Assembly: GCA_965178125.1 (NCBI GenBank)
Contig: OZ237763.1
Coordinates: 1-64,000 of the forward strand
Length of the DNA: 64,000 bases
Reading direction: 5' to 3'
From: Bilabrum cf. latius
Taxonomy: Eukaryota
In this document: positions 4,584-41,205 of the stretch, piece by piece
How the letters are laid out: each line of letters opens with the position of its first letter
Numbering within the stretch: the first letter of the stretch is position 1
Translations under genes and position numbers: made by a program
Notes under the pieces: model-generated
Database searches by the model: none
What the model was told of the DNA's origin: nothing
What the model saw: the letters and a program-made list of their open reading frames with translations, nothing else

Positions 4584-4746
4584 GTGGTAGAGAGACAGGG
4601 ACGAAGGAAGCCACGGCTGTGCGGCTGCACGACCATTGAGTCTGCACAGGATATGACCTAGAATTGCAATAAGCACACACACCGAAGTGCATCCGGATAT
4701 GTCTGTCCATCAGGCTCGGATCTATCAATCTGCGAACCTGGCCCCT

Positions 4747-6621: not shown

Positions 6622-6740
6622 GGTGGTACAGGCAAAATACTCGGAAGGCAACGTGGAGGCTGCTGATCGCGGCTCAACGAAGGTTCCTGCCGAACCTGAA
6701 GGTCGAATTTGAATCTCGAACCAGTAGATAAGCCCCTGCC

Positions 6741-12146: not shown

Positions 12147-12334
12147 ATTATGTAGTGCAGCGTCGAAGATGCAAAGATCTTCCGAGGTGCGCGCCCGGAA
12201 GCTAAATGTTCCGCAAATCGCGGCGCCAAAATATGTCGTCGTCACACAGGTCAGTGACACTGTGAGTGCCACAGCGCATTCCCGGTAGCGTCAGTGGCAA
12301 TGATGCACGCAGGTTTTTGCTTTTAAGTATTAAT

Positions 12335-15196
12335 ATGAACCTGGAGGCAGTGTTTTTCCGGGTACACTAGCAAGCTGCAAAGCTCGCGCAGGCTATTTTG
12401 CCTCACGGGTTTCGCGGGTTGGCCAAGCTAGTTTGCGTAGCATACATCGTTCTTGTTGTAATAGCGCTGGCTTTGGTGCACCTTACGTATGTAGGATCGG
12501 GACCAGGAACAGAATGCATCGCTGCTGCGATCGACCGCACCTCGCAAGCCGACGGTGGGATAAACAGCAAGCAGTCGTTGTTAATCTTCGAGCTGGCACT
12601 GGTGCCCAAGCAAGCTTATGACAACTCGGACCTAATTTTGTCTGGAACAGGTGGTTCTGACACTGGAAGCTCTATTTCTGTAGGAGCAGCTCAAGTTAAT
12701 ACGAACCTGCCGACGGGTGAACCGCCTCGCAGAGCCATTTACTCGCCCGTTCGATCCAGGGTGCGGCGTTGGACTGCCCTGCTGCAAGCATGGTTAGGAT
12801 ATGCTCACATCAATGATGCTAGCACGGACGCACTCGAACCGCCTGCCGAGCGCGACGGGAACTCCCCTCGCGACGATCTCTCGGGGTCGCTTGGCTCGTC
12901 TGGTGGCGCCAGTGTTGCCTCGCTGGCGGCTGCGCTGACGGGGCAGTACCACCCGCCCCCCTCCAGAAGGACATCCAGGCAGCACGGCAGGGCGCAGTTC
13001 CTGTACGCCCAGGACGCGGGCTGGCTGTCCATGGCCCCTGCCACGGTGCTCGCCGCCGGCGGCCGCGTCAGGGTGTTGCGTCTGAGGGCAAGCGGGGCTG
13101 GGGGTGGCGATGACTTTGAAACCAGAGGCGGGCTGAGCCTGGATCACGGATGGCAGGACACCAAGTGCCTGGGCAGCCCCGTGGTGCGGCACATGGCGGC
13201 GGCGCTCGGGCAGACGGACGTAGCGGCGCTGAACGGGCTGGTAGAAGCGTTCCGTGGGAGTGGGTTTGCCAGGCATATCTCGGACCAGGAGGCGGCGTTC
13301 TGGGCGGCGCAGGAGGGAAAACGCGGTAATGAAAGTGCCGTTGGGATGGTATCAGGCGGTGGCAGGGCCTCTTTTGTTCCCCAGGAGCAGGAGCAGGAAC
13401 AGGAGCCCCCTGTTGTGGGCAGCTCCAAGGTGTGGAGACTGTCACTGGCCAGGGATGTGGCCACGTTCCGGCGGGACTTCGAGAGCTGGGTCATGTTCAA
13501 GCTGGGCACTCTGTGCGCCGCCGTGTTCCTGCTCTTCTCGTCCTCCTCCATCGTGAGCTTTGTGCTGGGAGAGACGCAGCGACGCATGCTGCGGTTCGCC
13601 GTGATGCTGCGGGAGCTGATCGAGGAGCGCAGGCCCGTGGTCTGGGCGGTGCTCTCGCACGCGGCAGGCTCGTTGGTCTTTGTGCCTGTGATTCTCGGCG
13701 TGCTGTTCTTCCTGTTCGAGTTCTTCGGGGACCAGCTGCTGGCTCTGCTCGCACTTCTGGCAGTGTGGGCCTGCGAGATATATGCCGCCGTGGCCTGTCG
13801 CACTGCTGCATCACTGCAGGTCTTCCCCTTTGTGTTCGCGGTGACCTTCACATGGTTCTTTATATACCAGTTCTCGTACCCGTTTGGGGCGCACTACCTT
13901 GCCCTATGGGGGGCTGTGGCGGGCACCTCGTGCACGGCTGCGCACCTGTACCTTGACTACGAGATCCCTGCCCTGCTGGCCGGGTGGATCCACGCGGGGA
14001 ACATGAGGGACACTGCCGCGGGGGGGCCCTGGGAGGGGATCCGCACGCTCCTGCTGGGGGCCAGGGATAGGCACGTGCGGGCGGGGGAGGCGCTGCGCAG
14101 GGCCAGGGAGGACCTGGAGCGGATCCGGGCGAGGCGGAGGGCGCTCGGGCGGGGCCGTGGGCGCCGCGCGGGGAGATCGAGGGAGCGCGAGGAGGCTGGT
14201 TGGGATGGAACGTAGGCTGGCAACGAGGGCAGGCAGAGGCGGCAGCGGGGCAGGCAGCGCGCAAGCACTGGCGATGCGGCGCTGTTGAGCGGGGCTGGGG
14301 CGGATGGGCGGCGGCACGGCTTGCTGGACGAGCTGTATGCAGATGATCCGGGAGAAGAGGGTCACGGTGAGGTAGTTGAGAAGGAGCGAAGGCGAGGGTC
14401 AGCGAGCAAGCGATAGCGCACAGTCGGTGGCGGGGGTGGACGAGGCCGGCAAGCGACAGGCAAAGAGAGGGGGGAGGTGAAGGCGAGCAGCTCGACTCGC
14501 ACTGGGCGAGCGAGTCAAGCGGTGGATGGCTCGGTGCATGGGGACGGTTCCGTGCTATCATCGGTTGGTGCAGTCGTGGCCGGCTCAGGGTCTCTGGAAG
14601 ACACTTCGCCCGTTGGCCGTGGGCCCAGGCTATCTGCTTCCTAGGCAGCGGCGCAAGGCTCCCCACACAGAGGCACTGCTGCGAAGCTGCACGCCGCCGG
14701 GCGATCGCCCGCATCTCCAGAGGGCACCGGTGGCGGCTCACTGCCCCAGGGGGCGGGGGCGGGGGCGGGGGCCGAGGATGAGGGTGGGTCGCAGGCAGCG
14801 GTGGCATCCGTGACGAGCACTGGCCTCGGGTCCGACGCGACCCGGGGCGTGGACTCGAGGGCTTGCACCCCGTAGATGCAGGGCCTCAGGAGGCGGCGGA
14901 TCAGCAACGTGTCGGGGCTGGGCAGCGCTGCCGGGTCGCTGACAGGGGAGCTGGGCAGAGGCGGGCTCGGTGGCGCCGGGGAGGTAGGACTGGTGCGGGA
15001 CGTGCTTGAGTCAGGGTCGGGGTCGGGGCAAGGCGGTCGCGTTGCGCATGTCGGCCAGCACGAGGGGGAGGTTCACGCAGTCCGCAGGCCACCGGGGTTC
15101 AGGGTGAGCTTTGATGGAGACTCGGCACTGGATCGACTGGGCCAGGAACAGGGGTTTCCTGCAGGAGCACCGTCTAGCGAAGGCCGGACCACTTGA
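12335..15196 (+). CDS. TMEM259: Membralin (TMEM259)-like ER membrane protein (5 in-frame TAG)
   Basis: MNLEAVFFRVH*...LVHLTYV N-terminus and SFVLGETQRRMLRF...SLVFVPVILGVLFFLFEFFGDQLLA...FSYPFG match the membralin family. The frame continues through TAGs to TGA at 15196. Confidence 0.82.
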
Positions 15197-16858: not shown

Positions 16859-17125
16859 TGAAGGCTGTGAACACCCGATCGTCCCGCTCGTCTAGTTCGG
16901 TTGCGTGTACTTTTGGACGTGTCGAGGGTTTGCGTCAAGACTTATATCTACCTTTGCATAGGATTTGTGCGTTAAACAGGCCACCAGCTGGCAGACTTGT
17001 CTATTTTGTAGCCTTTTTGCTGGCGACAACTGGTTAGTTGCTGAGCAAGCACTGCTTTCAGCGCTGGACACAGTGGCCCGTTGCACCCAAAACAGCAGTC
17101 AAAGACTCAATCGATCTTGGAGGAA

Positions 17126-20100
17126 ATGGCAGGCCGTGAGATAAATTCGAACCATGCTTTCATAATTGTTAATGGATTTAATCTCGACTGCCTTTGATTG
17201 CGGTTCTATTCAAGTTTTATTTGCGCAGCGCCGCCGCCACCAGGAGGTGGACCACGGCCAAGAGTGCCATCTCTTGCACTCAAGCCAGGGCATTCTGCCC
17301 CTGCTGGTGTCCCAGCTAGACCCGGAAGGGCAATGATGACAATGAAGGAGTTGCGAGCAGCAATGATGAAGGAGGGAGTTGATGTGCCGGCCAAGTCGCC
17401 GAGGAGCACGGGGTCCCGCTCACCGAGAGGCGCAAGCTCACGGTCACCGCCAGGGTCAAGGCCGCCACCACCGCCTGGTGCAGGGAGACCGCCTCGATAG
17501 GGTAGTGCCGGCCCGCCGAGGCCCGGCCGCCGCTCCTCGGGCTCAGCTGGTGGCCCCAAGCGGCTTCCACCTGGAGCCCCACCGCCACCAGGCCAGTCGC
17601 AGCAGAGAGCACCAGGACCTCCGGGCCCTCCACAGCCCGTCAGAGTATCTGGGAGCAGACCGGGCCCACCTGGAAGCAGACCAGGTCCACCTGGAAGCAG
17701 GGTACCACCCCCGGGTGCCCCCACCCGGGGGTCAGGGGAACCCCCCCGGGGGTCAGGTGCACCCCCTAGGCTCATACCCCCGGGCCCTCCCCGCGGCCCC
17801 CCCAGCCCTGGCGCCTCGCGCAGCTCTCCGCCACCCCCCGCCGGTTCAGGACGCCCAGGAAACAGGGCAGCCTCCCCGTCACTCCCCCCACCTAGCGCTC
17901 CAGGGTCGCCACGGCCCCCGCCGCCTGCTCCAGCTGCCGTCAGTGCCGCCAACCGACCAGCGGCACCCGGCGCACCTGGCAGCGAAGACGGGTCTGCTGC
18001 CGGATAGGTTGGCTCTGGCAGCCCGCGAGGTGCTTCGGATCCGCCACCAGGCCTGAAAGCCCCGCCGGGACGTCCCATGGTCGATAGTACGGGTACTGGG
18101 AAGCTACCGCCAGGCGCGCCTCCCCCGCCACCGGGCCAGGACGGACAGTCTCCAGGATTGTCCCCAAGATCGTCGCCGAAGCAGGCAGCCGAAGCCATGA
18201 AGCGGGCATCGCCATCGCCACCGCCGTCGCCGAAGCAGGCAGCCGAAGCCATGAAGCGGGCATCGCCACCGCCGTCGCCGAAGTAGGCAGCCGAAGCCAT
18301 GAAGCGGGCATCGCCACCGCCGTCGCCGAAGTAGGCAGCCGAAGCTAGCCGTGGCTCAGACTCTGGTGCTCCACGGCCCCAGGGAACTGGAACGAAGACG
18401 CCGCCGTCGCCCCATCCGATCCCACCGGGAGGCGAGCCTCGAGCTGCAGTCACATCAAGTGTCCCCCCCAGCCCTGGCTCTCGCCCTGGCCCATTCGGAC
18501 GTGTAGAAGGTACCGAGGCAGACTCTGGTGCTCCACGACCCCAGGGAACTGGAACGAAGACGCCGCCGTCGCCCCATCCGATCCCACCGGCAGGCGAGCC
18601 TCGAGCTGCAGTCACATCAAGTGTCCCCCCCAGCCCTGGCTCTCGCCCTGGCCCATTCGGACGTGTAGAAGGTACCGAGGCAGACTCTGGTGCTCCACGG
18701 CCCCAGGGAACTGGAACGAAGACGCCGCCGTCGCCCCATCCGATCCCACCGGGAGGCGAGCCTCGAGCTGCAGTCACATCAAGTGTCCCCCCCAGCCCTG
18801 GCTCTCGCCCTGGCCCATTCGGACGTGTAGAAGGTACCGAGGCAGACTCTGGTGCTCCACGACCCCAGGGAACTGGAACGAAGACGCCGCCGTCGCCCCA
18901 TCCGATCCCACCGGCAGGCGAGCCTCGAGCTGCAGTCACATCAAGTGTCCCCCCCAGCCCTGGCGCTCGTCCTGGCCCTGGCGCTCGTCCTGGCCCTGGC
19001 GCTCGTCCTGGTCCTGGCGCTCATCCTGGCCCTGGCGCTCGTCCTGGCCCTGGCGCTCGTCCTGGCCCTGGCGCTCGTCCTGGCCCTGGCGCTCGTCCTG
19101 GTCCTGGCGCTCGTCCTGGCCCTGGCGCTCGTCCTGGTCCTGGCGCTCGTCCTGGTCCTGGCGCTCGTCCTGGCCCTGGCGCTCGTCCTGGCCCTGGCGC
19201 TCGTCCTGGCCCTGGCGCTAGCCCATTCGGAGGTGGTGGAGGCGGCGGACTGTTTGATCCTCGCGAGCTGCAGGCGGCACTGAAGAAAACGAAGAAGAAA
19301 GGGAAGAAGAAGAAGGGCAAGAAGAAGGCCGACAATGGGAATTCAAAGACTCCTGTATCGAAGGTGGATGAGGAGCCCGCTGCGTCGAAGGTGGATGAGT
19401 AGCCCGCTGCGTCGAAGGTGGATGAGGAGCCCGCTGCGTCGAATGTGGATGAGGAGCCCGCTGCGTCGAAGGTGGATGAGGAGCCCGCTGCGTCGAAGGC
19501 GGATGAGGAGCCCGCTGCGTCGAAGGCGGATGTGGAGCCCGCTGCGTCGAATGTGGATGAGGAGCCCGCTGCGTCGAAGGTGGATGAGGAGCCCGCTGCG
19601 TCGAAGGCGGATGAGGAGCCCGCTGCGTCGAATGTGGATGAGGAGCCCGCTGCGTCGAATGTGGATGAGGAGCCCGCTGCGTCGAAGGTGGATGAGGAGC
19701 CCGCTGCGTCGAAGGTGGATGAGGAGCCCGCTGCGTCGAAGGCGGATGAGGAGCCTGCTGCGTCGAAGGCGGATGAGGAGCCCGCTGCGTCGAAGGCGGA
19801 TGAGGAGCCTGCTGCGTCGAAGGCGGATGAGGAGCCTGCTGCGTCGAAGGTGGATGAGGAGCCCGCTGCGTCGAAGGTGGATGAGGAGCCCGCTGCGTCG
19901 AATGTGGATGAGGAGCCCGCTGCGTCGAAGGTGGATGAGGAGCCCGCTGCGTCGAAGGCGGATGAGGAGCCCGCTGCGTCGAAGGCGGATGAGGAGCCCG
20001 CTGCGTCGAAGGCGGATGAGGAGCCCGCTGCGTCGAAGGCGGATGAGGAGCCTGCTGCGTCGAAGGTGGATGAGGAGCCCGCTGCGTCGAAGGTGGATGA

Positions 20101-23100
20101 GGAGCCCGCTGCGTCGAAGGTGGATGAGGAGCCCGCTGCGTCGAAGGTGGATGAGGAGCCCGCTGCGTCGAATGTGGATGAGGAGCCCGCTGCGTCGAAG
20201 GTGGATGAGGAGCCCGCTGCGTCGAAGGCGGATGAGGAGCCTGCTGCGTCGAAGGCGGATGAGGAGCCCGCTGCGTCGAATGTGGATGAGGAGCCCGCTG
20301 CGTCGAAGGTGGATGAGGAGCCTGCTGCGTCGAAGGTGGATGAGGAGCCCGCTGCGTCGAAGGTGGATGAGGAGCCCGCTGCGTCGAAGGTGGATGAGGA
20401 GCCTGCTGCGTCGAATGTGGATGAGGAGCCTGCTGCGTCGAAGGTGGATGAGGAGCCTGCTGCGTCGAATGTGGATGAGGAGCCCGCTGCGTCGAAGGTG
20501 GATGAGGAGCCCGCTGCGTCGAAGGTGGATGAGGAGCCCGCTGCGTCGAAGGTGGATGAGGAGCCCGCTGCGTCGAAGGTGGATGAGGAGCCCGCTGCGT
20601 CGAAGGTGGATGAGGAGCCCGCTGCGTCGAAGGTGGATGAGGAGCCCGCTGCGTCGAAGGTGGATGAGGAGCCCGCTGCGTCGAATGTGGATGAGGAGCC
20701 CGCTGCGTCGAATGTGGATGAGGAGCCCGCTGCGTCGAAGGCGGATGAGGAGCCCGCTGCGTCGAAGGCGGATGAGGAGCCCGCTGCGTCGAAGGCGGAT
20801 GAGGAGCCCGCTGCGTCGAAGGTGCATTAGCGGGATACCGTTGCAACCCAAGCTGACTATCCCGCTGGTTCACCACGTAAGGATGAGGGCACGACTAACA
20901 GCGCACATGACAAGCAATTCAAGGCTGAAGAAGAGGCGAGGCAACGCATGGCGGCCCAGGTTGCAGAGAGGGCCATGGGCTCATTGCCAGCCGGCCGAGG
21001 CCGTAGTGACCCCGCTGCACCTGCCAAAGGTTAGAGCGACGGCAGTGACCAGCGTCACTAGTCGGCAGCTGTCTCGGTGGGCGGCTCGCCCGCCAGCTCC
21101 GGACACACTGCCTCTCAGACCGCGGGGCTCGTGCTGGTGGACGCATTAGCCCGCGGAGATACGAGCGGGCTAGACAAGCGCACCAAGCACCTGCTGCAGA
21201 TCATCGCAAAAGACTCGTAGCTCATGCGCAAGCTAGCTCGCGCCGTCAAGCAGCGCAAGCAGGAGATCAAGGCAGAGGAAGACGGCATTCCAGCTCCCAT
21301 CCAGGCGCTCATGCGTGGGTCGGGGTCTGGCAGCTCTCAGTCGGGACGGTTCACTGCACCGGCCGTAGGAGTCTCGGTGGACCAGCAGTTGAGGTCCAGC
21401 CCCGGTGCGTCGCGCAGCTTCCCAGCACCCGTGGACTTGTCCAAGGTGGTGATGCCTCCTGACCTGCAGGCCAAGATGGCTCGGCTGCTGGAGGCCCAGC
21501 AGCAGTGCGAGGCGGGAGACCCTCCGCTGAGACTGCCCGTGCTGACGGCAGACGACCTTGTTCGCCTGACTGCAGACCAGCTGCAGCTGTACAAGGCCGC
21601 GCTCACCAGGGTAGTCGCCGCCAAGAAAGTCGCCGTGGCCCGCAGGAAGGAGCAGGAGGCCCGCTCCCCTAAGCAAGTGAGCCCCAAGGTGGACACTGGG
21701 TACGCGGCCAGGAAGTCCCCGTCCCATGCGTCTCCACGAGCATCACCGTCGGCTGGCAGCGGGAATGGCAAAAGGCTGTCGCCTCGCAGTGGAGGCAATG
21801 CCCACTTCTCGAATGCCTCGCGATCGCCCCGAGGGTCCGGTGGCGGGCGGGCGAGATCCAGAAGGGCCAGAGGGTCCGTGGGAGCTGGATCTGCTCGCAG
21901 CAGCAGGCGCGGCGAGCGTACGGTGGACGCAGGACAGTATGCTACGGCAGATGCTCTGTCCGCCCGGGCCAGCGCACGGGCCAAGTCTAGGACCAGGTCG
22001 AGTCCAAGAGGCAAATCACTGGGGCGGTCACGGGGGAAATCGTCGGGCCGCTCACGGGGCCCAGCCTCCGGCAGCAGCGGCAGCTCTGGCAGCAAGAGCA
22101 TCAGTAAAATGGCAAGGCAGGGCGTGGACGCCGAGACGGGCGCCCTCGTGCTCAGGCAGCCCAACAAAGTCACGGCGGACTCTGTGACGATGCGTTCTGG
22201 CCGCGGAGACCCGACCTAGATCGCCTTCGAGACGGGTCTCAGAGGCAGGGCGGGAGGACTGGTGCCCTCACGGGAAGCTGGCTCAGCACGACCCACAAGC
22301 CTCCGTAGGCGGGCAAGCTCCAAGGGCGCCAAGTCCACAGGCAGTCCCAGGGGCACGCCTGTGACTCGATCAGGACGCAGCCGCAGCGGCAGGCAAGGCG
22401 CTCGCTCCAGGTCCGGGGGCGCCCGATCTGCCCTCCAAGCGGGCGCTGCAGACCGTCTGTCCCGTCCTAGGACAGGCTCACCGCGCACTGCCTCTTCAGC
22501 GGGAGCCCAGGCCTCGATCCGTCAGGCAGCCCGACTAGAGGAGGAGGCCAGGGCCCGAGAGAGGACCAGTCGGGTGCGAGCCAAGAGCAAGGGGCGGGGG
22601 CGGGGGCAAAGCAATGGCGGGCAAGGTCCACTTGAGTCACCCCTGGTGCAGTCTCAGTCCCAGGCCCGCGAGCTGGCCCTCATCCGCATGAGGAACACCC
22701 CCATAGTGGACGGACTAGGCCCCGACGGGCAGCCCATCCCCGACCTGCAGGCCAACACCGCCCCCGCGCTGCCAGACGAAGTCCCCCAGGTGGGTGCACT
22801 GGCCAGAGAGCCATTGACTGGCCCCTCCATGACCTATGCGGCGCCTGCCTTGGACGGCGTGGAGGGTCCGCCTAGGCCGCAGTCCCTCGGGAACACGGAC
22901 GCGCCCGCGACTGCCAGCGTGGCTGCCTCGGCTGCCAGCCTGACGCTCTCGAGCCGCAGTGGCACCCGCTCGCTGGGCCGCAGGCACACTCCCAACTCGG
23001 ATCGGTTGCTGGCCGAGCTGGCAGCCATGGACGCGCAGGTGGAGGCAGAGACAGCTGCGGCGCAGTCCGAGTCCATCGACTCCGGGTCCATCGTGATCAC

Positions 23101-26100
23101 CATACCCACTGCGGCACAGCTGGACGAGATGGCTTTGGAGGAGGGCGCGCTTGGAGAGGCACCAGACAAGGTCAAGACCAAGCCAGCAGAGGGACCTGAT
23201 CAGGTATCTGACGGACCTGGTGATGCCAGTCCTGTCGAAGTGACCGATGGTACTGCTAAGCAGAACGACACGGCGGCAAAGGGTGGCACAGCAGCAAAGG
23301 AGGACACTGCTGGAAAGGATGACATAGCAACGAAGGAGAGTAGCGAAGGTCCCACTGGCAACGCCTAGACACCCCCTAGTGAAGGCAAGGGTAAATCATC
23401 AACTGCCGGTGGGGAGCAAGAGCAAGAACAGCACAGCGGCGCACCGGACCCCCGGCTGCCGGGCGCAGCCAGCAAGCCAGCACTGCGCCCGGCACCCCAA
23501 GGCACCAACACCCTGAAGGACCAGGACAAGTCGCCATCTCCGTTGTAGGAGGGAGGAACAGCTGAACCCAAAGAGAGCGACGAGACTGAGCGACCGGACG
23601 CCTCCAGTGCCGATGGCCCGTCCCGGCCTGGCCCTGGCGCTCGTCCTGGCCCTGGCGCTCGTCCTGGCCCTGGCGCTCGTCCTGGTCCTGGCGCTCGTCC
23701 TGGCCCTGGCGCTCGTCCTGGCCCTGGCGCTCGTCCTGGCCCTGGCGCTCGTCCTGGCCCTGGCGCTCGTCCTGGCCCTGGCGCTCGTCCTGGCCCTGGC
23801 TCTCGTCCTGGCCCTGGCGCTCGTCCTGGCCCTGGCTCTCGTCCTGGCCCTGGCGCTCATCCTGGCCCTGGCGCTCGTCCTGGTCCTGGCGCTCGTCCTG
23901 GCCCTGGCGCTCGTCCTGGCCCTGGCGCTCGTCCTGGCCCTGGCGCTCGTCCTGGCCCTGGCGCTCGTCCTGGCCCTGGCGCTCATCCTGGCCCTGGCGC
24001 TCGTCCTGGCCCTGGCTCTCGTCCAGGCCCATTCGGACGTGTTGGAGGTACCGACGCAGGCTCTGATGCTCCACGGCCCCAGGGAACTGGAACAAAGACG
24101 CCGCCGTCGCCCCATCCGATCCCACCGGCAGGCGAGCCTCGAGCTGCAGTCACATCAAGTGTCCCCCCCAGCCCTGGCGCTCGTCCTGGCCCTGGCGCTC
24201 GTCCTGGCCCTGGCGCTCGTCCTGGCCCTGGCGCTCGTCCTGGCCCTGGCGCTCGTCCTGGCCCTGGCGCTCGTCCTGGCCCTGGCGCTCGTCCTGGCCC
24301 TGGCGCTCGTCCTGGCCCTGGCGCTCGTCCTGGCCCTGGCGCTCGTCCTGGCCCTGGCGCTCGTCCTGGCCCTGGCGCTCGTCCTGGCCCTGGCGCTCGT
24401 CCTGGCCCTGGCGCTCGTCCTGGCCCTGGCGCTCGTCCTGGCCCTGGCGCTCGTCCTGGCCCTGGCGCTCGTCCTGGCCCTGGCGCTCGTCCTGGCCCTG
24501 GCGCTCGTCCTGGCCCTGGCGCTCGTCCTGGCCCTGGCGCTCGCCCTGGCCCTGGCGCTCGTCCTGGCCCTGGCGCTCGTCCTGGCCCTGGCGCTCATCC
24601 TGGCCCTGGCGCTCGTCCTGGCCCTGGCGCTAGTCCATTCGGAGGTGGTGGCGGCGGCGGACTGTTTGATCCTCGCGAGCTGCAGGCGGCACTGAAGAAA
24701 ACGAAGAAGAAAGGGAAGAAGAAGAAGGGCAAGAAGAAGGCCGACAATGGGAATTCAAAGACTGGTGCTAACGAAAAGCAACAGGAAGGCTAGCCGTCCT
24801 AGTCCTAGTCTGTGCCAGTTCCAGATACAGCATTATCTGCGCTCGAGCCCCAGCCGGCTGTTTCCGAGAGTTCGGCAATCTTCGTGCAAGCGCAGCATCC
24901 GGACAACAAGGATGTTAATACCAGCACCAAACAGGGACATGGTGGCGCGCTCGTCCTGGAGGCGAAGAAAGAAGCTGAAGGCACTACTCCCGAAGAGAGC
25001 GCCAACGTGGTGCCTCTGCTGTCCCCACCTAGAGCGGGGCGCGCTGCTCCCATCCTTCTTGGTGCCGTGGTTGGCGGTGGCGGGGACGATGACAGTCAGG
25101 GCCAAGAGCCGGCTCAAGCCTCATCTCGAGCGCCAGGGTCCAATGCCGACGGCGGGCAAGAGGACGGTAACGACAGCGACTCCAGCTCAGCCGATGAGAT
25201 GGATGGTACTGGCACTGGTGGAAGGGCAGGCGGGCAGCCACACAGGGATAGCGGTAGCGACTCCTCCAGCTTGCAATCGGGAGGAAGCAGGAACAGGAGC
25301 AGGGGTTCGCGATCCAGGTCTAGGTCTGGGTCCAGGTCTGGGTCCTCGTACACGGGCTCGTATGACAGCCGCTCGAGCAGTCAGTCAAGGTCCCGATCTG
25401 GCTCTGGATCCTACAGCGACTCGGGCAGCAGCGACGGGTCGTTCGACTCGCGCGAGGACAGCCAAGATACGGGCGAGTCCATGCCAAAGCTGAACTCGGT
25501 CCAGATATTCGTTACACCGCACGGACCGCTCCCGTTCATGCGCGCCCCACAAGGCTGGATCCCGCTGCCTCCACCGACCCAGGCTGCCGCCGCGACAGCC
25601 GGTACCCCGCATACCACAGTTCCCCCCGTGCCGGGCAGTATTGCGATGTCACAGCCCATTGCAGGGGCAGAGATCGATCTGGGAGGATCTGTCGCATCTG
25701 TTGCTTATGTACCGGGCCAGAGCGCACACCCTGCACCCGGGACCCTGGGTAGCACAGTCCCCCCGGGTGCCAGGTGGCTGCAGCCCAGACAGGCCCCTCC
25801 AGTGCTAGCCGCATCTGCTGGCAGTCTGGGCTCCAGGGAAGTTCCCATGCTCAGCCCAGGTGCCCGCACCCTTCCCACCTCTGGAGGGCGAGCAGAAGCA
25901 GCTGCCTCGAATGGGACTGCTGGTAAGGCTGATAAGAAAGCGGCCCATCTGTCCAAGACGGGCGCCAGGTCGCTTCAGCGAGTGGGCGCTCCAGGTGGGA
26001 ACGGCAAGGCAGCAGCAGGCAGCTCCAGCAGCACCGCTTCTCCTGGTCGCTCTCCCCTAAAGCCGCTGCTGCCAGTGGGCGCCCCGGGTGACGAGGATGA

Positions 26101-29100
26101 GCGCGAGGCTGAGGACGTACTGGGAGCCTCTCTCAGGGGGGTCAGGGAGCCTGCGGGGGCGAAGGCACACCGTGCTGCTAGGGACAGTGCGGCTGCCGGT
26201 GCGACCTCTGGCAAGGGAAAAACATCTGGGACCAGTGGTGCGCGCGGGGTCAGGGGCAAAGACAAAGACAAGAGCGGCAAGCGGTCCAGCCGCAGGCAAG
26301 CCGCAGCTGGCTAGAACCCTGCCGACGATCCCAAATACATGCCACGCAAGGGCAAGCACGCCCCGCTTGAGGGACTCAAGGCCTTCATGTACGTGCCCAA
26401 CGCGCGTTGGAAGAGGCCCAAGGCCGGGGAACAAGAGTCCCCTGACGCGCCCAGGTACTGGGTGGGCCGCGTGACAGAGATCACGAGGCATCGCAAGTGC
26501 GTGCTGCACTGGTACAGGGAGACGAGCCCCGGTTCCGGCCTTTACAAGTCCACCAACCACCACTTTGCCGAGAAGATTGGCGCCCTACGGCAGTTCCGGA
26601 CCGCGGTGCGAGACAAGGCGGCCAAGGGCTGGCGGCTGTACCCGATCGTGCAGGTGGATGGGGACGACAAAGACAGAGAGAAGGAGGAGGAGGACAGGGC
26701 GAAGAGGGAGGCTGCGGGTATGCCCGTGGATGGCGAGGAGGACGAGGAGGATGAAGAGGAGCTCGCTATGGAGCGGAGGAAGAAGGAGGCTGGTAAGGGG
26801 CCCGAGGTGGAGGAGGAGGACCCCTCGCTGTTCGTGGGGCAGTTCATCTTTCTGAGAAACGCGAGGTTCGACTCGGCTAACGAGACCACTCGCAAGCCGA
26901 GGTACTGGGTTGGGCGGGTGGTTAATCAGGCCCCGCCCGCAAGCCCAATGGGCATCCCTGGCATGCCAGCCATGCCGGGAATGCCTCCCATGCCCGGAAT
27001 GCCGCCGATGCCCGGAATGCCTGGCATGATGGGCATGCCCCGACCGGGTGCAGGCGGTGCCCAGCAGCTGGCAGCCTCTGTCTCTCACAAGGTGGTGGAC
27101 GCCCGCGGCCGAGTCAAGCTGTAGTGGTTTATGGAGACCGCCATCGGGAGCGGAATATTCGTCGCCACAGACAAGACCTTCCTGGAGGCCAAGGACCTTG
27201 TAGTGCCGGTCCCGGGGGGTCTCGTGCATGACCGCAGCATCAACGCGTGGAGGAGGAAGGCCGGGCCGCGGGGGGCACCCCCCGAGCCCATCGTGTACCC
27301 CGGGGACGAGGCCCTGATCGCAGCCATCGTGCGCGAGAGGGATGCAGGGCCGGGCAAGGTGACCGGGGAGGGGCCCAGCTTGGGCGACGGGGCTGGAGGA
27401 GCTGCTGGATCTAGTGACCGGGCATCTCCCGATCCACCTGTGGAGATCAACGAGGAGAGGTCGGTCGCGCTGGAACCGGGGTATTTCTGCTTCTTGCCAA
27501 ACAAGAACTACAGGCAAGGCGCAAAAGAGACTCCGGACACGCCTCGGCACTGGGTGGCTCGCCTCACGCGCGTGCTGCCCAAGGACCAGGAAGGAGACGT
27601 GTGCGGCCGCTTCGAGTGGTGGCGGGAAGACAGTGCGGGAAGTAGGCTGTACCGCCGCACCGAGAGGGTTTTCAAGCAGAAGGTGGCCCAGATGTCCGTG
27701 ATCATGCCCGAGCACATGAGACCAGCGCCCGAGGCAGGCAGCGGGGCCCGCCTCATGTCTGGCCCCTTCAACACAGGGGCTCGGTTCGCCATGCCAGACG
27801 AGCACAGGACAGGCGGACCGCCCTCTTTGCCCATGGGTACTAGCAGCAGCACGGTGGCGGGAGATGGGGGCAGTGGTGCGGTCAGAGGGCAGGCGAAGGG
27901 TTCGGGGCCTGCTGCAGGGACATCCTCCCCGGCCCTGTCCAGCGTGCCCCCGACCCCCGAGGCCTTGGCTCAGCAGCACGGACAGACGAAGAAAGAGCCA
28001 ACAGGCAAACCCCCGCTGGCCAATGTAGCTTCTTCAGGTTTAGTGGAGGACAAGGAGGAAGAGGCGGCGGCATTCAAGGCCAACGGGAAGTCAAAGACCA
28101 AAGCAAAGGGCAAGACCAAGGGCAAAGCGAAAGGCAAGGGCAAGACCAAAGGCAAGACTAAGGCCAGCTCCAACAGCTCCTCTCAAGCTGCCTCCAAGGC
28201 CACGTCAGTAGCACATTCCGTGGCGGCAAGTGCCCGCAGTAAGGGGACGTCATCCTCCAGGAGAGCCAGCGATGCAAGCCTTCGAGCAGCAGACACAGCC
28301 CCAGGCACACCTGCGTCTGCTAGACCAACCCCAGGCCATCGACCGCAGCCGAGACCCCGTCCTAGGCCCGGTGGAGCCCGTCCCCGACCAGGAGCAGGAG
28401 CAGGAGCATCGACGCCACCAGCCCCTGCAGCATCGGATGCCCCAGCGCCCGGCCCTCGTCCGCAGCCGAGACCCCGTCCTAGGCCCGGTGGAGCCCGTCC
28501 CCGACCAGGAGCAGGAGCAGGAGCAGGAGCATCGACGCCACCAGCCCCTGCAGCATCGGATGCCCCAGCACCCGGCCCTCGTCCGCAGCCGAGACCCCGT
28601 CCTAGGCCCGGTGGAGCCCGTCCCCGACCAGGAGCAGGAGCAGGAGCAGGAGCATCGACGCCACCAGCCCCTGCAGCATCGGATGCCCCAGCGCCCGGCC
28701 CTCGTCTGCAACCGAGGCCCCGTCCTAGGCCCGGTGGAGCCCGTCCCCGACCAGGAGCAGGAGCAGGAGCAGGAGCATCGACGCCACCAGCCCCTGCAGC
28801 ATCGGATGCCCCAGCGCCCGGCCCTCGTCCGCAGCCGAGACCCCGTCCTAGGCCCGGTGGAGCCCGTCCCCGACCAGGAGCAGGAGCAGGAGCAGGAGCA
28901 TCGACGCCACCAGCCCCTGCAGCATCGGATGCCCCAGCACCCGGCCCTCGTCCGTAGCCGAGGCCCCGTCCTAGGCCCGGTGGAGCCCGTCCCCGACCAG
29001 GAGCAGGAGCAGGAGCAGGAGCATCGACGCCACCAGCCCCTGCAGCATCGGATGCCCCAGCGCCCGGCCCTCGTCCGTAGCCGAGGCCCCGTCCTAGGCC

Positions 29101-30490
29101 CGGTGGAGCCCGTCCCCGACCAGGAGCAGGAGCAGGAGCAGGAGCATCGACGCCACCAGCCCCTGCAGCATCGGATGCCCCAGCGCCCGGCCCTCGTCCG
29201 TAGCCGAGGCCCCGTCCTTGGCCCGGTGGAGCCCGTCCCCGACCAGGAGCAGGAGCAGGAGCAGGAGCATCGACGCCACCAGCCCCTGCAGCATCGGATG
29301 CCCCAGCACCCGGCCCTCGTCTGCAACCGAGGCCCCGTCCTAGGCCCGGTGGAGCCCGTCCCCGACCAGGAGCAGGAGCAGGAGCAGGAGCATCGACGCC
29401 ACCAGCCCCTGCAGCATCGGATGCCCCAGCGCCCGGCCCTCGTCCGCAGCCGAGGCCCCGTCCTAGGCCCGGTGGAGCCCGTCCCCGACCAGGAGCAGGA
29501 GCAGGAGCATCGACGCCACCAGCCCCTGCAGCATCGGATGCCCCAGCACCCGGCCCTCGTCCGTAGCCGAGACCCCGTCCTAGGCCCGGTGGAGCCCGTC
29601 CCCGACCAGGAGCAGGAGCAGGAGCAGGAGCATCGACGCCACCAGCCCCTGCAGCATCGGATGCCCCAGCGCCCGGCCCTCGTCCGTAGCCGAGGCCCCG
29701 TCCTTGGCCCGGTGGAGCCCGTCCCCGACCAGGAGCAGGAGCAGGAGCAGGAGCATCGACGCCACCAGCCCCTGCAGCATCGGATGCCCCAGCACCCGGC
29801 CCTCGTCTGCAACCGAGGCCCCGTCCTAGGCCCGGTGGAGCCCGTCCCCGACCAGGAGCAGGAGCAGGAGCATCGACGCCACCAGCCCCTGCAGCATCGG
29901 ATGCCCCAGCACCCGGCCCTCGTCTGCAACCGAGGCCCCGTCCTAGGCCCGGTGGAGCCCGTCCCCGACCAGGAGCAGGAGCAGGAGCAGGAGCATCGAC
30001 GCCACCAGCCCCTGCAGCATCGGATGCCCCAGCGCCCGGCCCTCGTCCGCAGCCGAGGCCCCGTCCTAGGCCCGGTGGAGCCCGTCCCCGACCAGGAGCA
30101 GGGTCGAGCACTCCGCCCCCAGCGCCAGGCATGGGGGCAGCTGGGTCGAGCACTCCGCCCCCAGCGCCAGGCATGGGGGCAGCTGGGTCGAGCACTCCGC
30201 CCCCAGCGCCAGGCATGGGGGCAGCTGGGTCGAGCACTCCGCCCCCAGCGCCAGGCATGGGGGCAGGGTCTCTACAGGTGGGCCAGCCGAGGCCACGGCC
30301 CAGGCCGAGACCACGGGCGCGGCCGGGCAACTTCGGGCCCACACAGCCCCGGACTCAGGATGCCGCGCCAGCGCCACCCCCACCACCGCCAGGAGCTGGT
30401 GCCCCGACAGCATCGGTGGGCGGTGCCAGGCCCAGACCCAGGCCCCGGCCTCGACCGGGGCCGAGGCCGCGCCGCAATGCGGTGCACTGA
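17126..30490 (+). CDS. Giant (~4420 aa) Pro/Gly/Ala-rich repeat protein with three BAH/Tudor-like modules (about 20 in-frame TAG)
   Basis: ATG at 17126, intron 17136-17228. ORF pieces at 17198, 18077, 19418, 21224, 22262, 24812, 26339, 27131 and 30131 are all in one frame, and every stop read between them is TAG. First TGA at 30488-30490. Confidence 0.8.
18358..18960 (+). repeat. 162-bp coding tandem repeat, about 3.7 copies
   Basis: Units begin at 18358, 18520, 18682 and 18844 (DSGAPRPQGTGTKTPPSPHPIPP...). Confidence 0.9.
18957..19218 (+). repeat. 18-bp coding tandem repeat (PGARPG)n
   Basis: Unit cctggccctggcgctcgt; the same unit recurs at about 23625-24030 and 24171-24630. Confidence 0.92.
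19357..20826 (+). repeat. 27-bp coding tandem repeat (DEEPAASK/N-V/A), about 54 copies
   Basis: Unit gatgaggagcccgctgcgtcgaaggtg with minor variants; encodes an acidic 9-aa repeat. Confidence 0.97.
23625..24630 (+). repeat. Two 18-bp (PGARPG)n arrays separated by one copy of the 162-bp unit
   Basis: Same 18-bp unit as 18957-19218; 24030-24170 resembles the 162-bp repeat. Confidence 0.92.
28340..30100 (+). repeat. 117/123-bp coding tandem repeat, 15 copies (PRPQPRPRPRPGGARPRPGAGAGA...STPPAPAASDAPAPG)
   Basis: Near-identical units; the Gln position is CAG, CAA or TAG depending on the copy. Confidence 0.95.
30100..30268 (+). repeat. 45-bp coding tandem repeat, about 4 copies (GSSTPPPAPGMGAA)
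   Basis: Unit gggtcgagcactccgcccccagcgccaggcatgggggcagct repeated. Confidence 0.85.
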
Positions 30491-35337: not shown

Positions 35338-38300
35338 TCAGATCCCGAGCCGAAGGCCCGCACCGCTGGCAGCCTCCATCAGCTGCTCCCGAGTCACCTC
35401 CACATCGATGCCCTCCTACAACTCGCCAGTGCCGGTGCCCCTGGGCCCTGCCCCCTTCCGGCCCGTGCTCTTAGGCCCGTGCCCCGCCAGACGACGAGAC
35501 CGCCGCACCGGGGTGGCCCTTAGAGGAGCCCCCGGCCGGTCTTGCCTCAGCCGAAGCACCGACACGCTGCCCTGCTCGTTGCTAGGCCCACTCACCAGAC
35601 GGGACGGAGTGCCGGCGCCGGCTGTGCGTTCAACCACCGCCTACCCACATGGCTGGACGGGAGATGCCATCCCACCATCTTCGGCAGCGGCAGCAGCCTC
35701 CGCCTCCTGTGCCCCCTCCTCCTTTTCGAGTCCCACGTCATCCTCAAAGCCCTCATGCCCGACACCCCCCATGTCATCCTCAAAGCCCTCGTGCCCGACA
35801 CACCCCATGTCGGCCTCATCGTCAGGACTCACATGCTCACCACCGTGCGCTGCGCCCGCACCTCCTCTCACCTCTTCACCTGCACTTGCTCCGGCGCCAG
35901 CTGCCGCCGGTCTCCCGGTGCCCGCCACGTGCGTCACCTGCACCGCCGCAATACCCACGGACAGCACCACCACCCCCATCACGAAGCCGGCGCGGGAACC
36001 AGACCCAGACCCAGACCCAGTACCAGCCTCTTGTCCATGGTGCTGTCCCTCACCCAGAGCATCGGCAACAGCGCGTTGGTCCACGACGGCACCAGCGTTG
36101 CCAGACCCAGGCGCTGATGCACTGACCCTCTCCACTGCGGGACCGGTGGTGGCGCTTGTGCTTGGGCTCGTCACGGAGGGCATGGGCACGGGCATGGCCT
36201 GGGCCTCATCCCACCACGTCATTGGCTACTGCATCGTACTCTCGCGCACGGAGGACGAGCCAGCCTGCGATGTCTCCTGAATGGCCTCTCCTCCATTCGA
36301 AGTCTCCACACCCAGGTCCGCTCCGACCACTGCCTCTGCCTCTGCTCCCACTCCGGAATCAGCAGCAGACAGGAGTGCTTGCTCTAGCGACACACCGCCC
36401 ACGCCCCGCCCCTGCTCCGGGGCCCACACCTGGTACCCGTCCATGACCCCCTCGACCTGCCACCCAGTACCCGAGGGAACAGCCAACCGGCGACGCACCA
36501 CCACCGCTGGCTCGTGCCTCGGCTGCGACAGGCGGTCCAGGAGGAGGGAGCGGGCCTCTTGCATGCCTGCCAGCTCCACCCGCCGCACCTGCGCGCCAGG
36601 AGAGAGGGCCGGCGCAGTGGTGACCCGCGAGACGGGGGCCCACAGCCACCCTTGCCCATGACCCTGTCTCTGTCCCTGCTAGTGCCGAGATCGGCTAGCG
36701 TACGATGCCACGGCGGGATGCTGCACTCCTGCGTACGCAGCTAGCAGCAGGGCCAGCACAGCCACAAGGACTAGGACAACCCCTGCCACATGGTCTCTCT
36801 CTCGCGCACTCTAGTCTACGACCATGGGAGACTCAGCAGCCCTTGCACAGGTAGATTCCTCTGATACGGGGTGTGGCAGTAATACCGAAGCATCGGTGCA
36901 GGCGCTAGTGCCACTGTCCGCCTGGTATCCGCTCTGGGCCTGGGGAACAGCAATCGCTGCGGCGTCCATGCCATCCTCTGCGGCGTCCTCCTCCCCGTCG
37001 GTTTCCGACTCCGAATCCAGGTCATCCACGAACCGACGCGACGCGGCCAGATCTTCAACTGCTTTTGTAGCCGTCACTGGAACGTCCACTGGTTGGTCTG
37101 CGTCGGCGCCAGCGCTGTTAGAGCCGGTCTGAGCCGTGCACTCCTTGGCCGCGCTGGCAACGCTGTCGGAGCCGCTGCCGCTGCCGCTGCTACCTCCGTC
37201 CAACACCTTGAGCTGGTGCTCTACGCGGGACCAGAACGACAGTCGGCCAGCCCCTTGCTCATGCTCGAGACCATTCCCGGTTCCCTTTTCATCCTCCCGC
37301 CCGGGCCCGTCCCCCAGCGAGGGCCTCGATGGAGGGGGTCCCACAGCCTCCAGGTCGGCCTCCATCTGCAGCGACCAGGGAGACGTGCTCCGGCGGCGGT
37401 CCTGATTCTGGTCGGAATGATCGGTGGTATCTGCCATGCTTGGCTGGGTGCTGCACTCGTCACACGCGTGCCAATCCCCGTCCACAACATCCGCATCGCT
37501 GTGCACCCCGCTCAGGATGGACCCGTCCTCCAGACTGCCACCCTCCACCCCTTCAACACCCTGCTGCTGCTGTTGTTGCTGCTGCTGGTGGGCATGAGTC
37601 TCTTCGTGATGGTTTTCCTCCTCGTCCTGGCCTCGGACGTGTCCTCTACCTGCCTCTGGAGCAGCCTCGGCCCGAGCCGCTGCTGACCTGGCCCGCACCT
37701 GGATCCTGGCAGCATCTCTTGGGCTCATCAGGGTCTCGCCCACTTTGACCACGTCTCGATCCCGCACCATTGGTGAAGGGCTGGACGCACAGACGGGTGG
37801 ACGAGGGATTGCAGTGCGATGCACCTGATCGTTGGCCGAGGCCCGGCGCGGCACAGGCAGCAGCGATCTGCGCGCCCCCTCACCCTTACCCTTGTTCCCC
37901 CGTGGCACCTCGACAGGTCGCACCCTCACCACCGGGCGGGCCCTCTATCCTGCACCGAGCCCTGTCCCCAAAGCTGCGTTCCTCCCCTGCCCCTTTACCT
38001 TCCGCCCCGCCAGAGGAGACATGAACCCCCCGAGTGCCCTCTGCTCCCGCCCAGCCCGCCCGCTCCCATCCGGGTGTCCACCAGAGGGGCTGTCCCACCA
38101 GCCCTCCTTTGCCTGCCGCTGCTCAAATTCGGCGCGAGCCGCAGTGATCTCGTCCTCGCCGGAAATGGCATCATCCGTCTCGACCTCCTCAACGGCACCT
38201 GCAACAGGGACCGATGCAGCTGCGGGCTCCGCAGCATCGCGAATCACCCCCCTCCCCCGGCCCCTGCTTCCACCCCTTGCTCTGCCTGTGACCACAGCCC

Positions 38301-39696
38301 GTCCCCCGAACGACAGCCTCGCCCCCAGCCCCCCTGCCCTCCTGCTCGAGGTCCTCACCGCCGGGGCCGCTGTCTTGGGCACAGGCACCTGCGACACGCC
38401 CGCCTGCTCATCCCCGTCTCCCTCGCCCGCTGCACCAGTGGCACTCGCCCGCACCCTCCCCCTTCCGCCAGACGCAGCCCGCCCCGACCGCACCCTCAGC
38501 CGCCCCTTGCGCACCGCCCCTCGCCCCGCAGAGACGGGACGGGGGCGCGAGCTGGGCTCCACGGGGGCTGACCCCGACGGCGATTCCGGCTCTGCCTCGG
38601 CCCCATCGTGGTGGTGGTGCTGCTGTTGTTGTTCCTGCAGCTTGTCTGACCTATCGTGCGATGCACCTGTACTCAGTCCTAGAGCCACGTCAGCCATCAG
38701 CTGGTCCACAGTGCCCTGCTTGTGCCCTCCAATGCCGCTGTCATGCGCCTCTGCTACTCTCTCGTGCCCATGCAGCACGTCCTCCCGCATGTCGTTGCCC
38801 CGCACATGCTCGCCGCCGCTCTGCTTTACCCTCGCCTTCTCTCCCCCGCTCGCCCTCGCCCCCCTGCCCCCGGAGCTCCCCCTCCCTCTCGCCCTCTTGC
38901 CCGCCTTCATCCTGGCCTCCAGCTCCGCCTGCCTCGCCCGAGACTCCTCCTCCCGGCGGCGCTGAGCCTCCAGCCGGGCCGCGTGCCGCTCCGCCGCCGC
39001 CTACTGCCTCCTCGCCACGGACACCCCTCTCCCTCTCCCCTTTTCACCCTCCCTCCTCCTCCTCCCGCTCCTCGCCCGAGCCCTCCCTCCAGAGCCCACC
39101 ACTGCCCGGGCCGTGTCTGGGACCCCCCGGCCGCCATGGAGCTGTCCGGCGGGCGTTACGGCCGAGTCCTGGGGCTCCACTGGGATTGCGACTGGGCGTG
39201 AGAGCAGGGAGCGCGGGGCTTTCGCGCCAGTGGCCCGGGGTCGCCCCACTCCGTTGGCTGCTCCTTTGGCTTGCTCGGCGCTCGGGGCTGCTCCTCGAGT
39301 GCGTCGCGCGGCGGGTTTCTTGCGAGCAGCACTGCGTGATGTGACCTCTATCTGGTGTTTTGTGGCCGATGATTGCTTGCTCGACTGCTTCTATTGCTTT
39401 GCGAGCTTCTCATAGGAAGGGAGCAGCTCTAGGAAACTTGGCGAGCTCGTATCCTTTAGCGCAGGCCCTCCGTCCGCTCCTGATTCGCAGGCAAGCTTCT
39501 TGGCTTTCCACTCAAGAAGCTCATGCATGCGCATTGACGAAGGTGTTAACTCGCCAGACTGGGCTTTCCGTCTCAGCACAGCAGCTGGGGAGCTCGGAAC
39601 CTCCGAGTTAGCGTCTCTGGGAGTTAATCCTTTAGGCTTCAAGGCAGCCGTATCATCAGAGACAGCTAGCGGCTATAATGTTCCTCTATGCTCCAT
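35338..39696 (-). CDS. Hypothetical low-complexity protein, about 1450 aa, with two hydrophobic segments (about 9 in-frame TAG)
   Basis: Seven ORF fragments (39642, 39249, 38910, 37932, 36588, 36222, 35637) lie in one frame separated only by TAG; ATG at 39696, TGA at 35338. TM-like segments VAGVVLVLVAVLALLLAAYAGV and GFVMGVVVLSVGIAAV. Confidence 0.7.
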
Positions 39697-39858
39697 GATT
39701 AGCCTGTCCACTATCAGATTGCGCTGATCCAGTTATGCATGCGTGCTTCGGAAGCGCGATTTCTCAACGTCCGGAATTCTCATTTTACCGGACCGGAAAT
39801 AACGGCACGCTATTAGCCCACAAATCTGGCTTGTGCATTTGTTGCGCCTACCTGCGCG

Positions 39859-41205
39859 ATGGCAGCAGCTGATCCATCATCAGGCATTCCATCCGGAAGT
39901 ATAGGTGGGGCCGCGTCCGGCGGGGCGGCGTTCGAGGATGACGGTGCGTTCGGAGAAGCAGTGGTGGCAGACCTCGGTACGGGGACGCTTAGAATAGGAT
40001 ATGCAGGGGCAGAACGACCAAAGCTAGAGCTTTCGTGCGTTGTTGGGCGATTAAAACACCCCAAGGTATTATCAGGTGGCGCACTAGATGGAAAATCAGA
40101 GTGAGTAAACGCTGAGTGCGCGAGTTGCACATCACGGTTTGAAACCGGATGCTTTGGGGCAGAGCGACACGCAAGCCAGAGAATCATGCAGTGTTTCGTG
40201 CGTTGCACAACCACTCATTTGCGCAGAATTATTGGATCAGACGCGCACGCGCACCGTGGGGTGCTCCGTCTTTCGCGGCCGCTAGAGCACGGTGCTGTGA
40301 GCGACTGGTCGGACGCGGAGCGCCTGTGGCGCCACGCGCTTGGATCTTCGGGAATCCGCGCCGAGTCTGGGCGGCATCCCATTCTAGTCACCGAGCGCGC
40401 GCTCACCTCTCGGCCACACCGCGAGGCGCTCGTCACGCAGCTGTTCGAGGAGCAGGGCGCGCCCGCGGTGGCGGTGGCGGGGCAGGCCCCTTTGGCCCTC
40501 TACGGGACCAGCGCCACGACGGGGCTGGTGGTGGACGCGGGGGAGGGATGCATCACCGCGGTTCCGGTCTACGAGGGCGTGTCTCTGCCCCACGCGACGG
40601 GCCGCGCGGACATCGGGGGCAGAGACGTGACGGCGCAGCTGATGCGCCTGCTGCGAGTGAGGGGCCTCCCGCTGTCCTCCTCGGCGGAGGCAGAGCTGGC
40701 GAGGGAGATCAAGGAGGCCACCTCGAGGGTGGCGCTAGATCCCAGGGCGGCAGAGGCGGAGGCAGCCGAGGGCAAGTCAGCAGAGGGGAGGTACCGGCTG
40801 CCCGACGGGAGGGTGCTCACCGTGGGGGCGGAGCGGTTCAGGGCGCCTGAGCTGCTGTTCGACCCCAGCGTGGGGGGCATGGAGGCCCCCGGGGTGGGGG
40901 TGCTGGCGGCGGGGGCGGTGCTGCGGGCCGACGTGGACACGCGATCGGCCCTTCTAGGGGGCGTGCTGCTGTGCGGTGGAGCCAGCAAGTGCCCGGGGTT
41001 CGGCGCTAGGCTGCTGCGCGAGATGCGCGGCCTGAGTCCCAAGGGCAGCAAGATCAGGATCAAGGCGCCCAAGGAGAGGGAACTCCTCCCTTGGGTGGGG
41101 GGCAGCATCTTGGCGGCACTGAGCAGCTTCCGGGGCAGGTGGGTGAGCAAGCAGGAGTTCGACGAGGAAGGGGTCCGGGTAGTGCACAAAAAGGCGCTCG
41201 GGTGA
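39859..41205 (+). CDS. ACTR1: Actin-related protein, Arp1/centractin-like (dynactin)
   Basis: VVADLGTGTLRIGYAG, VGRLKHPKVLSGGALDG, HRGVLRLSRPLEHG, ERFRAPELLFDP, KIRIKAPKER...WVGGSILA; intron 40101-40226; TGA at 41205. Confidence 0.85.

Follow-up and report, generated by a model that had tools for sequence, protein, structure and literature searches.

In-frame UAG as a probable glutamine codon, with UAA and UGA as stops, at a chromosome end of Bilabrum cf. latius

The stretch of DNA analyzed here (the window) comprises 64,000 nucleotides from Bilabrum cf. latius (assembly GCA_965178125.1, contig OZ237763.1, positions 1 to 64,000), and contains a tandem array of 123/117-bp coding repeats in which the same codon alternates between CAG, CAA and TAG. 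On the basis of homologue and ortholog comparisons in the conserved genes of the window, we consider it very probable that UAG is an ordinary glutamine codon of this nuclear genome, that UAA and UGA serve as its stops, and that the five TAG codons of the array are glutamine codons derived from CAG. An earlier note on this DNA (the original prediction) had already read TAG as a glutamine codon from the array, and this conclusion appears to be right, by way of the transketolase and HRD1-like comparisons described below, whereas the repeat alone falls short of it. Going beyond the original prediction, the reassignment is confined to TAG, with TAA still acting as a stop.

The transketolase gene provides both a homologue column and a close comparison with a second species, at the following codon.

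10500 to 10502, minus strand: in-frame TAG of the transketolase gene (GDFxKDT), examined by homologue column, relative and spliced contig

When the 120 best matches are aligned (MAFFT), the column facing this TAG contains Q in 112 sequences, S in 6, D in 1 and a gap in 1, the gap being P0028, a 98% identical fragment of 365 residues that ends (...KITGDF) just before the TAG. A relative is available as two metagenome contigs, L001:4-1797 and L007:735-1835, which share 99.1% nucleotide identity and are counted as one species; their GC content is 0.56-0.58, and they are 73% identical to the window's transketolase at the nucleotide level and ~81% at the amino acid level. At the window's TAG site the relative has CAG, and the reverse holds at two further sites, GDGCLxEG and FMExDEE, where a TAG of the relative stands against CAG in the window; these columns contain Q in 120/120 and 115/120 homologues, respectively. 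Each of the three TAG codons in the pair (window and L001) thus has CAG opposite it, whichever species carries the TAG; as a background, 262 of the 598 codons are identical, 226 differ synonymously and 110 non-synonymously. It had been proposed that exchanges among TAG, CAG and CAA be checked for synonymous behavior, and between these transketolase orthologs, that is, for one gene and one relative species, the check passes. The relative's transketolase ends in TGA and, since this species also carries in-frame TAG at invariant glutamine columns, the reassignment would be common to a clade and extend beyond one strain.

A second set of columns comes from the HRD1-like gene on the minus strand, for which an exhaustive search returned 18 matches, seven of them short fragments with 47-100% identity. 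Two of its TAG codons face Q in such fragments.

6373 to 6375, minus strand: HRD1-like TAG at query residue 83, Q in a 67%-identical fragment
5920 to 5922, minus strand: HRD1-like TAG at query residue 234, Q in 93%- and 55%-identical fragments

Four fragments (P0244, P0242, P0245 and P0248) span TAG positions, and the residues found there are listed below with the identity of each fragment.

P0244, 67% identical: Q at TAG83
P0242, 93% identical: Q at TAG234
P0245, 55% identical: Q at TAG234
P0244, 67% identical: S at TAG141
P0245, 55% identical: S at TAG295
P0248, 47% identical: T at TAG518

The sequence around the Q sites is well conserved, and that around the S and T sites is diverged. Among the distant full-length HRD1 homologues (25-34% identity) the TAG columns hold a scatter of residues from which nothing can be read. 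The ends of the fragments also follow the TAG codons, with P0243 ending before TAG83, P0247 before TAG141 and P0242 before TAG295. Together with P0028, these public gene calls stop one residue short of TAG codons of the window, as is expected of gene callers that apply the standard code and cut there. All four (P0028, P0242, P0243 and P0247) are from the same organism or close relatives.

In-frame TAG is spread over the genes of the window. Among those recognized by Pfam, the transketolase and the pyruvate dehydrogenase E2 component (PDH-E2) have one each, the HRD1-like gene six, GPKOW three, PIF1 four and the ABCB transporter one, and the TAG codons of transketolase, PDH-E2, HRD1-like, ABCB and GPKOW fall inside the Pfam-matched regions. 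Sixteen gene segments, with 16,782 codons in all, contain 74 TAG, 454 CAG and 106 CAA, which gives TAG a share of ~12% of the putative glutamine codons (74/634). Genes with a GC content at third codon positions (GC3) above 0.8 hold 0 or 1 TAG (transketolase, SDHA, actin-like, DHOase-like and both ABC segments), and fibrillarin (GC3 0.79) holds none. TAG behaves like a rare codon, with almost no occurrences in genes of high GC3, which are presumably the highly expressed ones.

The stops of the window were assessed where homology fixes the end of a protein, and one gene is closed by TAA.

47284 to 47286, plus strand: TAA stop of the Tubby-family gene, directly after ...SSFDYKLACE

The homology of this protein to the TULP1 chain 2fim_A extends to the last residue of the latter (276/276), and the TAA is the next codon. 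In PDH-E2, a TGA stands right at the homologous C-terminus (...TMLL). The 11 tabulated open reading frames (ORFs) and a small membrane-protein gene all end in TGA, with the exception of Tubby. When the two giant ORFs of the window are translated with table 6, in which TAG and TAA both encode glutamine, their 8,508 codons contain 48 TAG and 68 CAA but no TAA; TAA is likewise absent from the 16,782 coding codons as a whole, partly by construction of the ORF limits. Elsewhere, in-frame TAA is found upstream of first ATGs alone, in one case directly before the ATG of PIF1. Given the Tubby stop and the lack of TAA in the giant ORFs, the code is of the NCBI table 15 type (UAG for glutamine, UAA and UGA as stops) and not of the table 6 type.

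Contigs from two sequencing runs, X5 and X6, allow the TAG codons to be followed into RNA. They skip stretches of 87-420 nucleotides with GT..AG or CT..AC ends, through which the DNA run X4 reads straight, and from these joints it follows that the contigs derive from spliced RNA. Over the 13 TAG codons that they cover (transketolase 1, E2 1, HRD1-like 6, membralin-like 4, GPKOW 1) no letter differs, and the transketolase TAG is kept in a spliced contig (X6 record 19). Removal of two E2 introns restores the conserved start of the lipoyl domain, MPALSPTMEHGRIKEW, and places two seeming in-frame TAGs, found where the E2 frame begins at its 5' end, within introns. The RNA-derived cover of the giant gene that carries the array comes from X5 and lies in the 5' part, at 17088-18170, with a depth of 11.5-13. 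As a separate observation, X5 record 9 (window 3549-6626) spans the 3' end of the plus-strand E2 gene and the entire minus-strand HRD1-like gene, and the convergent transcripts of these two genes overlap or read through.

The giant gene, and two TAG sites in its other repeats, are located as follows.

17333 to 30490, plus strand: giant low-complexity gene, in a stop-to-stop frame of 17198-30490
18284 to 18286, plus strand: TAG in a 48-bp repeat (SPKxAAEAMKRA), a second CAG/TAG alternation
19400 to 19402, plus strand: TAG in one unit of a 27-bp repeat (KVDEEPAAS), with GAG in 53 other units

Under table 6 the frame 17198-30490 has 4,430 codons and is closed by the TGA at 30488-30490; it holds 22 in-frame TAG and no TAA, and its first ATG is codon 46. 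Under the standard code it breaks into pieces. Outside the repeats (2,612 codons), the coding frame contains 14 TAG, 0 TAA and 0 TGA, and the other two plus-strand frames over the same codons contain 31 TGA each and 1 or 16 TAA, such that TAG is roughly as frequent in frame as out of frame, with TGA and TAA being excluded. The four units of the 48-bp repeat have CAG (18182), CAG (18236), TAG (18284) and TAG (18332). Almost the whole protein consists of tandem repeats, with units of 48, 162, 18, 27, 18, 123 and 42 bp, and it also contains three paralogous modules of ~100 residues (PRYWVGRV...WYRET...). A Pfam search at E<=5 with these three conserved modules returned nothing useful, and a weak Atlas lead points to a WGR domain (score 0.82).

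The array itself encodes a Pro/Arg/Gly/Ala-rich repeat that forms part of the giant protein, close to its C-terminus.

28334 to 30102, plus strand: tandem array of 123/117-bp coding units (Tandem Repeats Finder and unit alignment)
28955 to 28957 (unit 6), 29078 to 29080, 29201 to 29203, 29564 to 29566 and 29687 to 29689, plus strand: five in-frame TAG codons (unit alignment)
28346, 28463, 28586, 28832, 29447 and 30050, plus strand: paralogous CAG, six units
28709, 29324, 29810 and 29927, plus strand: paralogous CAA, four units

Tandem Repeats Finder gives a period of 123, 14.5 copies and 95% matches, and the unit alignment resolves 11 units of 123 bp, 3 of 117 bp and, in addition, a truncated last unit. 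All 15 codon positions hold the codon that had been reported for them (CAG in six, CAA in four and TAG in five), and each is in register with the ORF starting at 17198. None of the three plus-strand frames of the array contains TGA or TAA, for which reason an open frame inside the array is no evidence; what fixes its reading frame is the unbroken connection to unique sequence farther upstream in the ORF. With the diverged first unit excluded from the column count, the unit alignment has six point-variable columns, which include the following variants.

CCG to CTG (P to L): fully linked to CAG to CAA, in units u4, u9, u13 and u14
CAG to TAG: in five units (u6, u7, u8, u11 and u12)
AGA/AGG: synonymous
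AGG to TGG (R to W): in two units
GCG/GCA: synonymous

Units u7-u9 resemble u11-u13, and a single C>T and a single G>A suffice to produce the three codon states, which were then spread by the duplication of units and of higher-order blocks. The alternation therefore amounts to far fewer than 15 independent observations. This bears on the view that the repeat reveals the amino acid with no need of homology from elsewhere, which does not stand: the alignment and tabulation of substitutions that had been suggested as a check confirm that the three codon states are real, but reduce the variation to a few copied events, two mutational events rather than fifteen for the codon in question. CAG>TAG is moreover a one-step transition route to TAG, the non-synonymous changes P to L and R to W are tolerated within the same array, and the 27-bp repeat, in which TAG stands against GAG in 53 units, would by the same logic give glutamate. 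Of the 369 single-base changes possible per unit, 3 yield an in-frame TAG and 7 a TGA, and a single TAG in six variants, taken alone, is within the reach of chance. The 123-bp repeat is a good hint to the meaning of TAG, but it cannot identify the amino acid.

If UAG is read as glutamine, as we propose, a plausible course of events would be that the array TAGs arose by a single C>T transition from CAG and were then spread through duplication of the repeat unit, with UAG being decoded by a putative tRNA-Gln with the anticodon CUA and with an eRF1 that may have lost recognition of UAG while keeping that of UAA and UGA. A number of observations weigh against a glutamine reading with UAA and UGA as stops. 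Neither a tRNA gene (tRNA scan), nor an Rfam match, nor an eRF1 gene was found within the 64-kb window. The RNA nature of X5 and X6 is deduced from spliced joints, with X5 being labelled "probably DNA," and the RNA-derived cover of the giant gene belongs to its 5' part, outside the 123-bp array. The role of TAA as a stop is supported by one homology-anchored gene (Tubby) and by the absence of TAA from coding frames. As to the amino acid, TAG pairs with GAG (Glu) in the 27-bp repeat, three less conserved HRD1-like TAG sites face S, S and T, the PDH-E2 TAG column is K in 102, R in 16 and A in 2 of 120 homologues, and the ABCB TAG column is L or M in homologues from the PDB. The search for GPKOW homologues gave no match, and its two domain-internal TAGs thus give no column.

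The last of these points lead to the question of whether TAG could be a sense codon for another residue, such as the Ser of Scotinosphaera, the Leu of the rhizarian exLh, or the Glu or Lys of some ciliates, to which we give little chance. A Scotinosphaera-like UAG=Ser code could also account for the S at two of the HRD1-like TAG sites; T stands at a third, and S is the second commonest residue at the transketolase column (6/120). Lys, Leu and Glu could appeal to the E2 column (K/R), the ABC column (L/M) and the GAG/TAG pair of the 27-bp repeat, respectively. Against this, the three TAG columns of transketolase hold Q in 112/120, 120/120 and 115/120 homologues and K, L or E in none, each of these TAGs has CAG as its counterpart in the ortholog, and the HRD1-like fragment with 93% identity has Q at TAG234. 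The columns without Gln all lie within locally diverged sequence; the PDH-E2 and ABCB columns, both in such regions, we judge to be uninformative, and the S at the HRD1-like sites may be explained by a one-step change between TCG and TAG. Ser and Leu are the serious alternatives, and the transketolase columns together with the 93%-identical fragment speak strongly against both.

It could also be argued that TAG, even if read as glutamine within genes, serves in addition as a true stop with an open tail behind it. ORFs delimited by TGA and TAA would miss such a stop, and two genes have a late TAG, at codon 4035 of 4078 in the cadherin gene and at codon 1487 of 1512 in the gene at 35341-39876. 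However, transketolase, E2, SDHA, fibrillarin, actin-like, DHOase-like, Tubby and the ABC nucleotide-binding domain contain 0 or 1 TAG, none of which sits where a stop would be possible, and the stops of E2 (TGA) and Tubby (TAA) coincide exactly with the homologous termini of these proteins. No conserved gene has a TAG placed as its stop, in what is a small sample of ORFs delimited without TAG, and we regard a dual role as having a slim chance.

Very improbable, in our view, is a table 6 code in which TAA is also glutamine and merely rare in a GC-rich genome. In its favor, UAG and UAA usually change together (PMC5304391; PMC11687900), and TGA ends all delimited gene models but one. Against it, the TAA of Tubby stands exactly at a conserved C-terminus, and the giant ORFs have no TAA beside their 48 TAG and 68 CAA. 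The in-frame TAA codons that do occur are confined to positions upstream of first ATGs.

Under a normal code, with TAG as a stop, the array would belong to a pseudogene, an untranslated region or a non-coding satellite, and its open frame would result from high GC content and repetition. The freedom of all three plus-strand array frames from TGA and TAA, the lack of a Pfam domain in the giant protein and the position of the RNA-derived cover outside the array are all compatible with this. Nonetheless, in the 2,612 non-repeat codons TGA and TAA are absent from this frame alone, compared with 31 TGA in each of the other two plus-strand frames, and directly past the TGA at 30488 the GC content drops from 0.77 to 0.47 and a convergent PIF1-like gene ends 140 nucleotides away. 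For the genome as a whole, a normal stop is already contradicted by single-copy housekeeping genes with TAG at invariant glutamine columns, reciprocally in two species, and for the array we hold it to be highly improbable. Editing of TAG to CAG in the mRNA (U to C) under an otherwise standard code is hardly credible, as no support for it was found and the spliced RNA-derived contigs of two runs show nothing other than TAG at the 13 codons.

Reassignment of UAG alone to glutamine has been described for Iotanema spirale (Fornicata) and the ciliates Protocruzia tuzeti, Hartmannula sinica and Trochilia petrani (PMC11687900; PMC5304391). Other lineages have UAG as Ser (Scotinosphaera) or Leu (the rhizarian exLh and metagenome-assembled genomes of some ciliates) with UAA retained (PMC11687900). 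Both UAR codons encode glutamine in Amoeboaphelidium protococcarum, ulvophycean algae, oxymonads, diplomonads and many ciliates, as listed in PMC6299283 (for Amoeboaphelidium), PMC5304391 and PMC11687900. The organism of the window resembles the table 15 cases so described, Iotanema and three ciliates, in that the same codon means glutamine and UAA is uncoupled and kept as a stop. It differs from the table 15 ciliates in having a chromosome of at least 64 kb, a TTAGGG-type telomere and ~63% GC, and its main stop is TGA, whereas those ciliates mostly use UAA (PMC11687900; PMC5304391). Nor is it an anaerobic fornicate like Iotanema, because SDHA and PDH-E2 are encoded. With table 6 organisms such as Amoeboaphelidium protococcarum it has in common a UAG for glutamine and a predominant TGA stop, but here TAA is a stop and is absent from coding frames. 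It is similar to Scotinosphaera and exLh in that UAG alone is reassigned and UAA retained, and unlike them (Ser and Leu, respectively) it has Gln at conserved columns.

The organism matches none of the published table 15 organisms, and looks like a further lineage of a known code type. In the literature searched, with subscription journals outside its coverage, no GC-rich non-ciliate eukaryote with UAG alone reassigned to glutamine was found except Iotanema. It is quite possible, although we would stop short of calling it probable, that this is a poorly sampled lineage of GC-rich aerobic protists with at least two species, which evolved UAG as glutamine independently while retaining UAA and UGA as stops, and forms the second uncoupled case outside the ciliates and the first known with a chromosome-end assembly, with UAG making up ~12% of glutamine codons and being avoided where GC3 is high. 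UAG and UAA nearly always change together, and the few lineages that split them lend themselves to studying how the two codons are discriminated by eRF1 and by what route a suppressor tRNA reaches fixation. An organism that is rich in GC, has introns, is assembled to a chromosome end and has its code in common with one relative or more would make such a comparison tractable outside ciliates. There is also a practical side, as gene callers that use the standard code cut genes at every TAG and thereby mis-annotate the proteome of this organism; four such fragments are already in public protein databases, and genes of 4,430 and 4,078 codons would be annotated piecemeal.

The general character of the window is that of the end of a eukaryotic nuclear chromosome in an organism with spliceosomal introns, which follows from its telomere repeats and from the GT..AG skips in the run contigs.

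1 to 1110, no strand assigned: telomere repeat (CCCTAA)n, with a 58-bp subtelomeric repeat next to it (1113-1498)

The window start (1-1498) contains ~185 copies of CCCTAA and 6.7 copies of the 58-bp repeat, and the first expressed, spliced gene begins ~50 nucleotides inward of the latter. GC content ranges from ~0.53 to 0.71 in the window. The SDHA and PDH-E2 recognized by Pfam are aerobic mitochondrial enzymes. PDH-E2 has its best matches in metazoans at only 38-44% identity, and the full-length transketolase nearest to that of the window is 65% identical; the transketolase tree sets the window and the relative's L001 among sequences without a named sister. The same sequence, with 0 differences where compared, is present in sequencing runs from several studies and under several organism labels, as could be expected of a contaminant, symbiont or parasite in other cultures. 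Amoeboaphelidium, a parasite of algae for which a TAG/TAA glutamine code is reported (PMC6299283), would suit this mixture of labels, but TAA is a stop here.

Two further genes deserve mention. The ORF at 12266-15196 has no Pfam match and is membralin-like by language-model features (score 0.96), with PF09746 present in 74% of top-cluster members. The second giant ORF, at 48218-60454, has 4,078 codons and 26 TAG (22 in the per-gene tally), and combines RCC1-like repeats with ephrin-receptor-like, cadherin and FG-GAP domains and a 36-bp Ser/Thr/Pro repeat. Its C-terminal part consists of six or seven repeats of an unassigned module of ~110 residues (...ETRRGNIRF...), followed by a transmembrane segment.

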